IMG/VR virus record: IMGVR_UViG_2529293069_000011
From: a virus
Taxonomy: Duplodnaviria; Heunggongvirae; Uroviricota; Caudoviricetes
Strand: one strand, 5' to 3'
Length of the DNA stretch: 34,435 bases
Numbering within the stretch: position 1 is the first letter of the stretch; every line of letters begins with the position of its first letter. Position numbers: made by a program. Positions 18,001-24,000 of the stretch are shown here, in pieces.

Positions 18001-21000
18001 GCAGTAAATCCTTTCTATATTTTGGCATAATTCTTCAACATTCGGTAATCGTTCAAAACCGAATCGGGGAAACGACATAAGCACAGGAGCCCCCAGCGAC
18101 AGCGAAGGAGTTCTGATATATAAGACTCAGACATCATTCATTCCCCGGTTCTCCAATATCTGTTTCACTCATCATCCATAACTACCTGTAATTGCCCCCC
18201 TTTTTTTGTAACAGTTCTTATATTGCTATATAGAATAGCCATTACTAATGCATTTAAATTTAATAAAATAAAAATTATAAAAAACATAAAACACCACGCA
18301 AACACACTTAATAAAAACACCGTTACATTAAAAGATAATAAAAACCGCAATAAAAAACGAATAAATCAATTGTCTCACGCAATTATAAAACATCATATTG
18401 ATTACGCACCTTGTATTACAAACTCATGTATGTAAAATACGCGCACCATTCAAAAAAAAGGAAGACAATAACATATGAAAAAAAGTGTCATCGCTGGCGT
18501 CTTTATTGCTCTGTCATTTACCACGTGTTCAGCTATCGCGAACAGCCTTGCATTATCATTAGCAAATGATGATGCAGGGAAGTTTCAACCAATACTTAAT
18601 GATATTTATGGCAATAAACATGAAAACAGAGATGATTACTCACAAGGCTTATTTCTGGGATATAGCCACGATATCTCAGACTCGAGCCAATTATCTCTCC
18701 ATATTGCGCAAGATATTTACTCTCCATCAGGCAGTAATAAAAGACACAACACAGCTGTAACTGGAGACAGAGCTTTTAGTGCATACACTCACACTGGTAT
18801 TGAATGGAACTCCCTTGCGAATGACTGGATTCGCTATCGATTAGGTACTGACATAGGTGTTGTTGGCCCCGACGCAGGCGGTCAGAAAGTACAAAATAAA
18901 GCTCATGAGATTATTGGGGCAGAAAAATATCATGCATGGGATGATCAAATAGAGAATCGCTACGGTTATACTGTAAAAGGGATGCTATCCATGACACCAA
19001 GTATGGATATTTTAGGTGCTAATGTTGGATTATACCCTGAAGTTTCTGCTGTTACTGGAAACTTATTTCAATATGTAGCATATGGCGCAACCATTGCCAT
19101 TGGTAATGATAAAACCTTCAATTCGGATAATGGCTTTGGTCTGCTGGCTCCCCGTGGTTTAATGCATATGTCCGATACAAGCGGATTCAAATACAAGATT
19201 TTTGCAGGTATGGAAAGACGAGATGTCAATCGCAACTATACTCTCGAAGGAAAAACAATACAGACGAAACAAACAACAGTATCGCTAAACAAAACTGTTG
19301 ATGAATATCAAGTTGGCGCAACAATTGGGTATGCACCTGTAGCCTTCACACTAGCATTTAATAAAGTAACATCAGAATTCAAGACAGGGGATGACTATTC
19401 ATTTATAAATGGAGCAATCACCTTCTTTTTTTAACTGAATTGAATTCAATCAAAATAACATAAGTCCAACAAAAACATAAAGTGCGAAATGAATGCCAGC
19501 TCCATTTATTTCGCACTATAAAAGATTAAAAGTTGCAATAAAATAATAAAATGACTCAGTTACGAAAACCAATAAACTGTGGCCAGTAGTGAGTCGCTCA
19601 TCATCGGGCTTTTTGGCGAATGAAATTTAGCTACGCTTTCGAGTCTCATGCGCCTTCTCCCTGTACCTGAATCAATGTGAGGTTTCCGCAGAACACTGCG
19701 CCAGTATCGATATACATCTGGTTGGCAAATTTGAGTGGTTTCACTGCTGGCGTATGACCAAAGATGAACGTGTCCGCGCCTTTGATTTCTTTCACGATCC
19801 CGTCTTGTGAGTTGCTGATTCGTTCGCGGTTCCAGATTACCTGCTGATGATCAACTGGCTTTCCAAACTCGTATTTATCACAAGGATAATCGGCGTGGCA
19901 GATGACATATTTTTTTCCTTTACTCACCAGTTCGATGATTAACGGAAGTTCATCTGCTTTATGGGCAAGAGCTTTAGCCAGAATTTCTTTGTCGTAATCG
20001 AGATTAAAGAACCAGCCACCGCCATTAAGCAGCCAGTGATTGACGTTTCCACGCTCTGATAAGCCATCAATCATCATTTGCTCATGGTTTCCACGTACAG
20101 CTCTGAACCAGGGGAATGTGATTAATTCCAGGCATTCTACGTTCTCTGTACCGCGATCAACCAAATCGCCCACCGAGATAAGCAGGTCTTTTTTGGTGTC
20201 GAATCCTATCGTCTCCAGTTTTTTCATCAGGTTCGTGTAGCATCCGTGCAGATCGCCAACTACCCAAATATTTCGGTATTTGCTGCCATCAATTCTTTCG
20301 TAGATATTCATGCAACCTCACTTCTGCTGTTTCGCAGTTTTTTAAGTTTCTGTTGATACTCCGCCTTGATGGCCCTGCACTCTTCGACAGTCCAGCGATA
20401 GCGGTTATGGTTTGATTCGATTTCCTCTACTGCTTCCTGCCCGATGCGGCTAATCAGTTCGACGCGATACGGAACGAGATTTCCGCTTTTGTGCTGGTTG
20501 CACACCACGCATTGCTTGTGAATATTGCGTTCATCAAATCGGAGTTGAGGTGCCGCAGCAGTTGTCCGGTAATGTCCGGCATCCCACTGAGCAGACGTGA
20601 GCGTTCCGCACGAGATACATGGTAAGTCGCGGTCTCTTTCTCTGATGAAGGCGTTTACGGCTTGTTGGGCTTGTTTAATCCAGTAACTGCGGGGCTTTAA
20701 GGCGAGTTTTTGAATCTTAAGTTTATCTTTCTGTTTCTGCTCCTCTCGTCGTCGTTTCTTCTCTGCTGCCTTTTCTGCCTTTTCCGCTTTTTCGCGTTCT
20801 TTACTTCGTCGTTCGAGTGCTATCTTGGTTCCACAAATCTCATTACACCAATATTGATTTTGATATTTTGGTATAAACCATTCATTGCAACATTTACATT
20901 TCCTTCGATAGATTCGCATAAGTGCTCCTTTCGTTGCCGGAAAAATCACCGTAATACTTATCTCGGGCTTCTTCAGCAACTAGTACCGCTAACTCCAGAT

Positions 21001-24000
21001 CATCAAAGCATCCGAAGTGTTTACTCTTGCCATGGAATCCTAGCCTAACATTCCATTTTTTCTGTCGTTTGTGCCAAGTAACCCCTCTGCAACCTGATTT
21101 GCTATTCTTTCGGATCCTTATATTTCTTGAATTTTCTATTGGCAGGCATTCTCTTAAATTTTCTGGCCTATTGTCGGTCCTAATTCCATTAACGTGGTCA
21201 ATTTGACCAGCAGGCCAACGATTATGAGTTATGTAAAAAACTAAGACGTGAGTTTTATATCTACGCCCATCTATCATGATCATTGAATAACCGTTGGAAT
21301 CAAAAGCTCCAGCAACACTATTTAATGCTATCCTTCCCTGAGTGGGAACTTTCCATCTAAATACCCCGGTAGATTTATCGAAACTTAGTAACTCAAATAT
21401 CCTTTTAACAGTTAAATCTTCTCTTTTACGGTTACATCGTCTTCGAGCTGGTTTAGCCATCGCCTTCTTCCTCCGTAATGGTTTTCTGAATTTGGCCACC
21501 TGAACAGAGCTCACCAAAGCTATGGATGTCGGTATTTCCACAATACCAAGATGGCGAAAATAACTGCATGATAAGCCTCAGGGAAAAGGGAAGACACTAC
21601 CCCCGATAATTCAGAAACAAATCGAAATACATGAACTAAAGAAAAAATCACAACAAATAGAAATAGAAATAGAAATAGAAATAGAAATAGAAATATTAAA
21701 ACAGACCACTGTAGATTCAATCTGTCAATGCAACACCCCTTTCAATTATCTCTTTCGGTGTTTTGAACTTCAGTGTCTTTCTCGGTCTGTTGTTTAGCTG
21801 AGCAGCAACCAGATCTAGTTCATGTTGAGTATATTGGGCAAGACATGTCTTTTTAGGAAAGTACTGCCGAATTAGCCCATTTGTATTCTCATTTGTTCCC
21901 CGCTGCCAAGGACTCTGAGGATCGCAGAAGTAAACTTTAACGCCGGTGCTGACAGTAAATTCTAGATGTCTGGCCAGTTCCATTCCTCTGTCCCATGTCA
22001 GTGATTTTCTGAGTTCTGACGGTAAACTCAGGAATTTGTCGGTAAGAGCCTGATTTACTGAGACAGAATCTTTGCCCCTGAGTCTAAGGATGATCGTATA
22101 ACGTGATTTTCGGTCTACAAGTGTGGCTATATGAGAGTTTTTTGTACCTGAGACTAAATCGCCCTCCCAATGCCCCAGAGAGCGTCTGTTATCGATATTT
22201 CGGGAACGTTCGTGAATTGGTGTTCCGTTCACTATGTTAATCGTACCTCTTTCGCCTTTGCGGGTATGACGCCTGCCATGGCGAAGGCTATGCGACCGTC
22301 GCAGATGCTGTATATTCAGGTGGTGTAGCGCTTCACGGCTACGAAAGTACAGCGTTTTATAAATTGTCTCAGGTGATATTCGCAGCGTTTTTTGACGTGG
22401 TTTTGTTCGCCTTAACCATCCTGATATTTGCTCTGGAGACCATTTCATCTCCAGCTTTTCCAGAACAAGCTTTCGCAATGGTAAATTTTGATCCAGTAAG
22501 CACGGTTTTGGCCTTTTCGCCATTCTGTTGGCTCGGTTATTAGCATCAACAGCTTTGTAATAGCGTCTGCCCCGATTACGCTGAACTTCACGTGAGATCG
22601 TCGAAGGACTGCGATTCAGCGCAGTAGCTATCGCACGAATGCTCATTTTGGCTGACAAACCAGCTCGTATCTCCTCGCGCTCAGACAGTGTCAGGTGAGC
22701 TACAGCCCGCTTACGCTCATGGGGTTTTATGCCGCCAGTATCCCTTAACATAGTGAAGATCGTTCCGGGTTTTGAACCCAGGATATTCGCTATTTCACTG
22801 AAGCCTGTTCCGTTCTTCCATAGTTCAAAAACAGAGGCTTTTTCCTCTGCTGTAAATGTTCGTCTCATTCAAAAAACCTCCGCAACCCCATGTTTTCACA
22901 TAACTGTTGCGTTGACCAATTGAATCTACAACCACATTCCTGATGTCATACTCACTAAACAATTTTTCGACAACATGGTAGCTCATAGAACGTTATCGTG
23001 TAGACACCCTCTGCTACGTATTCGGTGTTCAGTGCAATATCTACAAATACTGGAAAAATCTAAAATCGAGGCAAGTTTTTGGTGATAACTATAGTTAGAC
23101 TATATTGACGACCTGATGTGCTGTATGTAATAACTAACAAAAAATATTTTCCATGGGATTTTTTATTTTAATGAAATGCAAAATATTTTTATCAATAGTT
23201 AGTATTATGGAAACCATTAATTCAGGAGGAAACTTGATTCCAAATTCAACTTCAAATAAAGGTTATGTATGCATTGACATGCAGTGTTCGTCAACCTCTG
23301 AACCAACAGCTTCTACCTCCAGCAACCGGAGTATTAAATTAGCCGCTTCCACAAATGTATATCCGATAACAAGAAACGACTCCGAGCTCACTCTGAACGA
23401 TTTTCTTGATAATAGCTCTTCTACGTCATCATTGGACTACATTAATGAATTGGGTTCTCAACTGACGTTAAATGATTTTCTTGACAACATAAAGACAAAT
23501 GAGGTGGATAGAACATGTACGGATGTGGTAATTAATATCCCACAAGAGATACAAACAAATACACAGGAAAATGATTTGTTATTATCCGATAAAAATAATT
23601 CAATATGCATTGAAATCGATGAAAGAATTACAAAAATCCTAACATGCAAGCAAAAATATCAACTGGACAGCATCATTCATGAAATTATACCAAAAGAGAA
23701 TGAGAGTGCAGAAACTGTTCTCCATCTTATGAGAGTTCTGAACGATCAATATCATCAGGTATATAATCAGTCAGGATGTTTTTATAAAGCCTATATGGCC
23801 ATACACAATAAAATCGAACAGATACTTCCATATGCGTTCAGAGCCGGAGGCGGAATCAGCATTCACTTGCTCATACAGGCATTATTTTTTAATGGCGACT
23901 ATAACAAATCACCTTCACAGTCTCAACAACCATCTTTATATACATCACCTTCTCCAACAATAAATACAGAAGCATTCTTAAGTAATGTATTATCACTAGA

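Follow-up and report, generated by a model that had tools for sequence, protein, structure and literature searches.

How can a nuclease gene begin with the opening codons of a neighbouring gene while that neighbour remains whole? The question is raised by a locus in a lambda-like lambdoid prophage of Escherichia coli, contained in the 34,435-nucleotide stretch of IMG/VR virus record IMGVR_UViG_2529293069_000011 (Caudoviricetes), which at its full length is called the window below. The early-right operon of the window lies on the minus strand, where a 38-codon open reading frame (ORF) ending …EEEGDG is followed by a 188-codon ORF, the 203-codon ninG (rap), a recombination gene whose product is the junction-specific endonuclease NinG/Rap, and a gene for a NinI-type phosphatase, with Q further on. 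In VCSW5 and P393-F10 (E. coli) the order is ninB-ninE-ninF-nuclease-ninG-ninH-ninI-Q, with a full lambda-type ninF directly upstream of the nuclease gene. A preliminary description of the window had read the 188-codon ORF as a homing endonuclease that inserted into the 5′ end of ninG and inherited its translation signals, with the target gene repaired by a new start. We conclude, with a probability of roughly 0.6 for the whole account, that the locus probably represents a free-standing homing-endonuclease cassette in the 5′ end of lambdoid ninG, joined by one-sided illegitimate repair. The features on which the argument turns are the following.

21461-21477, minus strand: 3′-end remnant of a lambda-type ninF (…EEEGDG, then stop), holding the ninG ribosome-binding region (alignment with lambda, VCSW5 and the Shiga toxin 1 (Stx1) phage AU6Stx1)
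21432-21460, minus strand: captured start and codons 1-10 of a lambda-type ninG (ATGGCTAAACCAGCTCGAAGACGATGTAA), now serving as the opening of the endonuclease ORF (28 of 29 nt identical to lambda 42432-42460)
21402-21442, minus strand: imperfect tandem repeat of 20 nt (AGACGATGTAACCGTAAAAG / AGAAGATTTAACTGTTAAAAG) spanning the left junction (Tandem Repeats Finder score 52)
20894-21460, minus strand: endonuclease ORF of 188 amino acids, an HNH_3 nuclease followed by an AP2-fold domain (ATG at 21460, TAA at 20896-20894; Pfam, PHROG)
20836-21431, minus strand: imported cassette, endonuclease body plus foreign ninG 5′ end, replacing 64 bp (lambda 42461-42524, ninG codons ~11-32)
20925-20929, minus strand: Shine-Dalgarno sequence AGGAG for the downstream ninG, within the terminal part of the endonuclease ORF and 5 nt upstream of the ATG at 20919 (sequence reading)
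20894-20919, minus strand: 26-nt overlap of the endonuclease 3′ end and the ninG start (sequence reading)
20836-20919, minus strand: foreign (X-type) ninG codons 1-28 (alignment with lambda and nuclease-free alleles)
20308-20919, minus strand: complete chimeric ninG (rap), 203 amino acids, lambda-like from codon 29 (TGTGGAACC…) (Pfam NinG)

The start of the endonuclease ORF was compared with lambda (J02459). A stretch of 42 nt (GAGGAAGAAGgcGATGGCTAAACCAGCtCGAAGACGATGTAA), made up of the 13 nt that precede the ATG and the opening 29 nt of the ORF, matches lambda at 39 of 42 positions and spans the overlap of the ninF stop with the ninG start as well as ninG codons 1-10. Past TGTAA, the window and lambda diverge abruptly and have nothing in common, which places the left junction directly 3′ of CGATGTAA. 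The coordinates 20894-21460 given earlier for a 188-residue ORF opening MAKPARRRC are correct, and the alignment indicates that the resemblance of these residues to the N-terminus of lambda NinG is real homology, coincidence being ruled out by the 39 matching positions. Residue 16, where the conserved core begins, is preceded by no other in-frame start codon, so that the nuclease relies on what was formerly the start of ninG. Relatives of the protein lack this N-terminus. A tblastn search of 50,697 phage records found 2,287 further records with a relative, and the alignments listed extended over query residues 16-174 and hardly beyond. Twelve relatives from metagenomes, with 32-47% identity, begin 0-12 residues ahead of the conserved L..LL.YDP.TGVFRW helix with short unrelated N-termini, none of them MAKPARRRC, and end ~11 residues sooner than the 188-residue protein. 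Since homologues align just to residues 16-174, both ends of the protein are products of the junctions, residues 1-15 and 175-188 being on this alignment appendages to a conserved body. The proposal that the nuclease inherited the ninG translation signals therefore holds, as its start codon, ribosome-binding region and first nine codons are all lambda-type. Shuffled windows contained 0.1 tandem repeats of the kind found across the left junction per 34 kb, so that this repeat may be a microhomology footprint of the joining event.

Both edges of the insert were defined by alignment with lambda and insert-free relatives, a check that the preliminary description had proposed. In a BLAST comparison of P393-F10 with lambda, the left flank is 95.9% identical over 364 nt up to lambda 42460 and the right flank 97.1% identical over 1,400 nt from lambda 42525; between them, 596 nt without a match stand in place of 64 nt. 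The G+C content of the nuclease body and the foreign ninG 5′ end is 32-40%, compared with ~50% in the flanks. The cassette consists of the nuclease body, AGGAG-N5-ATG and 28 codons of a ninG 5′ end. The nuclease TAA falls in the Cys8-Lys9 codons of the foreign ninG and the left junction lies at the homologous Cys9-Lys10 of the lambda-type ninG; an imperfect direct repeat brackets the insert (left CGAAGACGATGTAA, right CGAAGGAAATGTAA). The footprint of a homing gene in the 5′ end of ninG is thus upheld as far as a nuclease insert at the ninG start is concerned, but the inserted unit is not the nuclease gene alone, being a 596-bp cassette that replaces 64 bp. The chimeric architecture, taken by itself, is a reading in which we have very high confidence.

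The ninG gene downstream of the nuclease is complete. It restarts at 20919, as described before, with AGGAG 5 nt ahead of its ATG, and its full 203-residue product matches NinG (PF05766) with 275.7 bits over residues 4-197. Over its whole length this protein has 85% identity to lambda NinG; it differs mainly in the first ~28 residues and keeps Cys8, Cys11, Cys25 and Cys29. The foreign 5′ end holds its own counterpart of codons 1-9 (MRIYRRKC, compared with MAKPARRRC in lambda) in which the cysteine pattern is kept, and is identical to lambda at only 43 of 96 alignment columns. A comparison of 36 distinct carrier sequences with 14 distinct nuclease-free lambda-type sequences gave 53 fixed differences in columns 1-100 (divergence between the groups, dxy, 0.43-0.46) plus a 6-nt indel. 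After column 100 there were no fixed differences and the divergence between groups equalled the diversity within them. The divergent N-terminus followed by near-lambda sequence had been noticed correctly; its interpretation as a repair by a new start was not borne out. The sharply bounded divergent block, the indel and the homologue of the supposedly lost codons point to an imported segment rather than to local repair, the downstream N-terminus being the full homologous 5′ end of another ninG allele that would have been imported with the nuclease. A 9-nt duplication (GAAAAGGCA, 20763-20780, ninG codons ~47-52) adds Ala-Glu-Lys, with the result that NinG has 203 residues here and in some carriers and 200 in others.

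The foreign 5′ end always accompanied the nuclease gene, in 55 of 55 IMG/VR viral loci and in 8 of 8 metagenome loci, and among E. coli genomes 532 had the foreign 5′ end compared with 538 that had the nuclease. Searches for a foreign-type ninG without the nuclease gave no match to a degenerate DNA pattern in GTDB species-representative genomes and a single match to the shorter degenerate CKCCNEWF pattern, in Flavobacterium sp. H122 (L070, 4545-4568), which is presumed to be due to chance. A protein search with the 40 N-terminal residues returned partial E. coli fragments of the same allele and nothing else. Natural NinG variants with CKCC or CKVCNEWFVPQY N-termini do exist; …RRRCKCCGVFFEPKYHNQTWC… is found in an E. 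coli NinG cluster, and MSKPARRKCKVCNEWFVPQY… opens a protein of Atlantibacter. The foreign segment has the appearance of a 5′ end from an unsampled ninG allele, carried along with the nuclease gene, and its shared low G+C content and constant linkage suggest that it arrived with that gene in one cassette and was not made afterwards. Reading of the two frames shows a nuclease predicted to be translated from the resident ninG initiation region and first nine codons, and a NinG predicted to be translated from the imported start within the 3′ end of the nuclease ORF. Accordingly, ninG is not divided into two separately translated parts, as the downstream copy is complete and only nine codons remain upstream, fused to the nuclease.

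The identity of the nuclease was examined by profile searches and structure prediction. The 188-residue protein matches HNH_3 (PF13392) with 42.7 bits against a Pfam cut-off of 24.8 and PHROG 99, annotated 'HNH endonuclease', with an E-value of 6.6e-71. In an alignment with 12 homologues, none of the catalytic residues (D88, H89, N101 and N110) varies. An AlphaFold2 model had a mean predicted local distance difference test (pLDDT) score of 85, with both termini disordered (60 for residues 1-10, below 50 for residues 178-188). In the AP2 region the model has a three-stranded sheet (strands 127-130, 135-142 and 145-152) packed on a helix (155-173). The AP2 profile match stayed below threshold, but this part of the model superposes in Foldseek on AtERF1 (1gcc; root-mean-square deviation 1.3 Å over 51 columns, probability 1.00) and on TEM1 (1.1-1.2 Å). 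Together these results support the earlier identification of the protein as a predicted HNH endonuclease with an AP2-fold domain. An Rfam scan of 20200-21800 gave no match with an E-value of 1 or less and thus no group I intron or other RNA element. The nuclease ORF has its own stop and ninG its own start, and neither an intron nor an intein encloses the gene; a promoter search of the coding strand revealed none that belongs to it.

The cassette occurs in 4 of 425 phage records that match ninG and in 538 of 5,426 complete E. coli genomes (~10%), many of them clonal O157:H7. Presence and absence occur at one fixed site between otherwise homologous genomes, as in P393-F10 and lambda. Some genomes contain up to three copies, and the 538 E. 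coli genomes have the cassette at 564 places altogether. Nucleotide diversity (π) is 0.001-0.012 in the cassette and reaches 0.06-0.09 in the downstream ninG. On its upstream side the near-invariant cassette has one of two sequences and on its downstream side one of at least four neighbours, in every combination, and the ninG bodies of carriers draw on the same pool of polymorphism as nuclease-free alleles. The nuclease ORF is intact in 65 of 66 loci (L006 is frameshifted). Decayed ninG copies occur in carriers, with IS2 (L072, 3106-4384), an IS629-like end (L055) or a nonsense mutation at codon 36 (L020 and L033). A gradient of co-conversion was also considered: diversity rises toward the 3′ end of ninG in carriers, but it does so likewise in nuclease-free alleles, and the gradient is therefore not specific evidence for co-conversion.

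These observations would be accounted for by the following history. The donor would have been an unsampled phage in which the nuclease gene lay directly upstream of another ninG allele, and a break in a lambda-type ninG would have been repaired from it by double-strand-break repair. On the right side the repair would have been homologous, in the conserved ninG body; the left side is without homology, so that this end would have been joined illegitimately or through microhomology, fusing the nuclease in frame to ninG codon 10. Both one-sided, microhomology-mediated repair and the ectopic landing of endonuclease genes in coding regions are documented in T4-type phages (PMC2988022). The chimera would then have spread by homologous recombination in its lambda-like flanks. 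As for function, the nuclease would cut nuclease-free lambda-type ninG near codons 10-32 during co-infection or co-induction, and repair of the break would copy the cassette. The sharply bounded divergent tract of ~84 nt travels with the nuclease gene, and this imported 5′ end would make carriers resistant to cutting while NinG stays functional. That the element drives gene conversion by a putative nuclease activity is plausible, and we judge the chances of homing activity in the present day to be even. Our confidence is low, and the suggestion tentative, for the more ambitious reading in which the cassette is an active 'replace-and-protect' homing unit that drives gene conversion among the co-resident lambdoid and Shiga toxin (Stx) prophages of enterohaemorrhagic E. 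coli, its nuclease, expressed from the target's own start signals, cutting lambda-type ninG and the repair copy bringing a cut-resistant, functional substitute 5′ end. Such a cassette may also seed further adjoining recombination junctions, as with the second junction found 15 nt upstream of its start and described below.

Several results weigh against the homing-cassette account. The AP2 (PF00847) match reached 22.1 bits (E 1.9e-4), below the Pfam cut-off of 33.3, and no Foldseek match had an E-value as low as 0.001. The sign of purifying selection on the nuclease is a pN/pS estimate of ~0.22, a crude one derived from 27 polymorphic sites in related copies (15 synonymous, 12 non-synonymous), and the clonality of many of the 538 carrier genomes means that the counts overstate independent events. 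Nuclease-free ninG copies reside in carrier genomes beside the cassette (median two ninG places per genome), which is compatible with repression in lysogens and gives homing no support. No donor was found, in that the searches returned neither a nuclease relative between 47% and 98% identity nor a nuclease-free foreign-type ninG, and for this reason the order of events given above is one that we infer. Finally, the cassette is so uniform that a very similar pattern would result if it had arisen once and had then been moved about by the usual mosaic recombination of lambdoid phages.

This last point is the core of an alternative in which the locus is a passive mosaic module: a chimera of single origin, with a nuclease that is inactive or irrelevant, spread only by the general homologous recombination of the lambdoid nin region. 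The boundaries are identical in all 66 loci, which indicates a single origin, most carriers belong to related lineages of Shiga toxin-producing E. coli, lambdoid phages are highly mosaic in any case, and decayed copies occur (the one frameshifted nuclease, and ninG with IS2, the IS629-like element or the nonsense codon). Against it stand the intact ORF at 65 of 66 loci, the surplus of synonymous changes and the conservation of the catalytic residues. The cassette also has a diversity far below that of its flanks and occurs in ~10% of complete E. coli genomes, and we regard this explanation as unlikely. The signs of purifying selection might instead reflect a domesticated nuclease that serves the phage, for instance by keeping out rival lambdoid phages or by introducing breaks for use in Rap/NinG and Red recombination. 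The gene is co-transcribed and translationally embedded among recombination genes without a promoter of its own, and marker exclusion by phage homing endonucleases is known (PMC2988022). Yet a domesticated function fits poorly with absence from most lambdoid phages, only 4 of the 425 ninG-matching phage records having the cassette, and the exclusion of rivals is the same biochemical act as homing, which makes it hard to separate from the homing-cassette account; we consider it very improbable as an explanation in its own right.

The sequence of events closest to the preliminary description, in which only the nuclease gene entered, behind ninG codon 9, and the shortened ninG was mended afterwards as a new start and a divergent N-terminus evolved, does explain why the nuclease carries ninG codons 1-9 and why ninG restarts with its own Shine-Dalgarno sequence. 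It does not explain why the downstream N-terminus includes a homologue of the very codons that were supposedly lost, or why the 53 fixed positions and the 6-nt indel lie within ~100 nt when the adjoining sequence is ~97% identical. The foreign 5′ end also has the low G+C content of the nuclease gene, and N-termini similar to it occur in natural NinG variants. De novo evolution to such an extent in so small an area is implausible, and we regard this history as very improbable.

Upstream of the nuclease gene, the window departs from lambda ninF just before GAGGAAGAAG, the point at which the two upstream types split among 63 loci. In the window and in AU6Stx1, lambda ninF is replaced by unrelated sequence up to ~15 nt before the nuclease start, and this is a second mosaic junction, beside the nuclease gene. 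In this stretch (21461-21620) only the last few ninF codons are kept, in the 38-codon ORF (MQLFSPSWYC…), which had no Pfam or PHROG match. The window-type upstream sequence is common to 519 E. coli genomes. Further upstream, an ORF of 617 amino acids (23153-25006, plus strand) runs opposite to the nin genes; its product is rich in Ser, Thr and Asn and had no Pfam match, and PHROG 9230, to which it belongs, is a family without known function. Among phage records and E. coli genomes, the segment 21461-21640, between the 617-residue gene and the nuclease start, occurs almost only with the nuclease cassette. In VCSW5 the ninF stop is changed from TAA to CAA (L003, 3037-3045), which extends NinF into the nuclease start. 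An ORF of 215 amino acids from a GTG at 21541 was considered as the true form of the nuclease gene and rejected, as the extension exists only in the window-type upstream context and is absent after lambda ninF.

The same upstream region contains a complete IS30 (21710-22930; 1,221 bp with 26-bp inverted repeats and a 383-residue transposase at 21717-22868, minus strand), an insertion relative to AU6Stx1; in prophage Sp17 of O157:H7 Sakai a partial IS30 occupies this site. A perfect hexamer array, (AAATAG) x 6.8 at 21655-21695, abuts the end of the IS30. AU6Stx1 has the array too, and it was therefore not created by the insertion sequence.

Downstream of ninG, the window lacks ninH, and the ninG stop overlaps the ninI start (ATGA, 20308-20311); in other cassette carriers this position is occupied by ninH or by different genes. 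The neighbouring genes on this side are these.

20311→19646, minus strand: NinI-type phosphatase (Pfam and ORF reading)
18475-19434, plus strand: LpxR-family outer-membrane protein gene, in reverse orientation between Q and ninI (Pfam E 7e-40)
17311-18084: Q

The LpxR-family gene resembles a moron. Plus-strand ORFs at 20710-21048, 21027-21206 and 21342-21503, opposite the locus, were treated as frame shadows, and the 112-residue one among them had no Pfam match. Elsewhere in the window, tandem repeats with periods of 39 and 20 nt (28445-28522), within an ORF of 312 amino acids (27931-28869), resemble lambda-type ori iterons.

The kind of element proposed here is already known, and the locus is a neat if fairly ordinary example of it. 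The free-standing HNH nuclease MobE of T4 and the Seg proteins, which take part in 'intronless homing' in T-even phages, are likewise stand-alone genes between or beside conserved genes, present in some genomes and absent from others. They too adjoin a divergent tract of the neighbouring gene, which in T-even phages is co-converted, and are presumed to spread by double-strand-break repair (PMC2988022, PMC2790892). Unlike these, the present element lies in a temperate lambdoid prophage, has an AP2-fold DNA-binding module, has borrowed the start and nine codons of its target gene and is a nuclease by prediction. Ectopic insertion of an endonuclease gene in a coding region with retention of the host function has been described for mobE in nrdA of Aeromonas phage Aeh1 and for mobA in T4 gene 60 (PMC2988022). 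There, the interrupted host gene yields two polypeptides, which reassemble; ninG, by contrast, stays undivided, since it receives a full replacement 5′ end from the cassette and just nine of its old codons are left behind. In gene 31 of the P22-like Salmonella phage epsilon34, an HNH homing endonuclease is described as fused in frame to a resident eaE-like N-terminus (PMC2629481). That fusion differs in its operon and resident gene, its HNH portion is said to resemble those of Gram-positive phages, and no replacement 5′ end of the resident gene is described (PMC2629481).

In structure, the best Foldseek match of the model was I-HmuI of Bacillus phage SPO1 (PDB 1U3E), a member of the HNH_3-type catalytic domain family, with a probability of 0.99 but an E-value of 6e-3, a TM-score of 0.37 and 15% sequence identity; I-HmuI is intron-encoded and has other DNA-binding modules. 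The closest relatives in sequence are HNH proteins of Jersey-like Salmonella, T5-like and T7-like phages, 41-45% identical over residues 16-174 with the same HNH_3 and AP2-like architecture. They are annotated as homing endonucleases, are free-standing and often occur several to a genome, and they differ from the present protein in belonging to virulent phages, in their genomic sites and in having short N- and C-termini of their own. A literature search found no description of the chimeric nuclease/ninG architecture. Databases already list the gene under the name 'HNH endonuclease' or 'endonuclease', for example as ECs_3504 of Sakai Sp17, which adjoins ninG (ECs_3503), and in the Stx1 phages AU6Stx1 and SH2026Stx1; the AU6Stx1 protein is identical to the 188-residue protein of the window.

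For annotation, the finding means that the true start of the 'HNH endonuclease' is the former ninG start and that database calls of 215 and 201 amino acids are over-extended. To our knowledge, homing elements have hardly been studied in the lambda nin region, and the locus offers a clean, experimentally accessible case of a putative homing endonuclease in this classic setting. Its junctions are defined to the nucleotide and illustrate how a presumed selfish nuclease gene can become established within a coding region and still leave the recipient gene alive. The carriers include Stx1-converting phages and the O157:H7 Sakai prophage Sp17 and, if the nuclease is active, the cassette would locally drive the recombination of Shiga-toxin phages with resident prophages.

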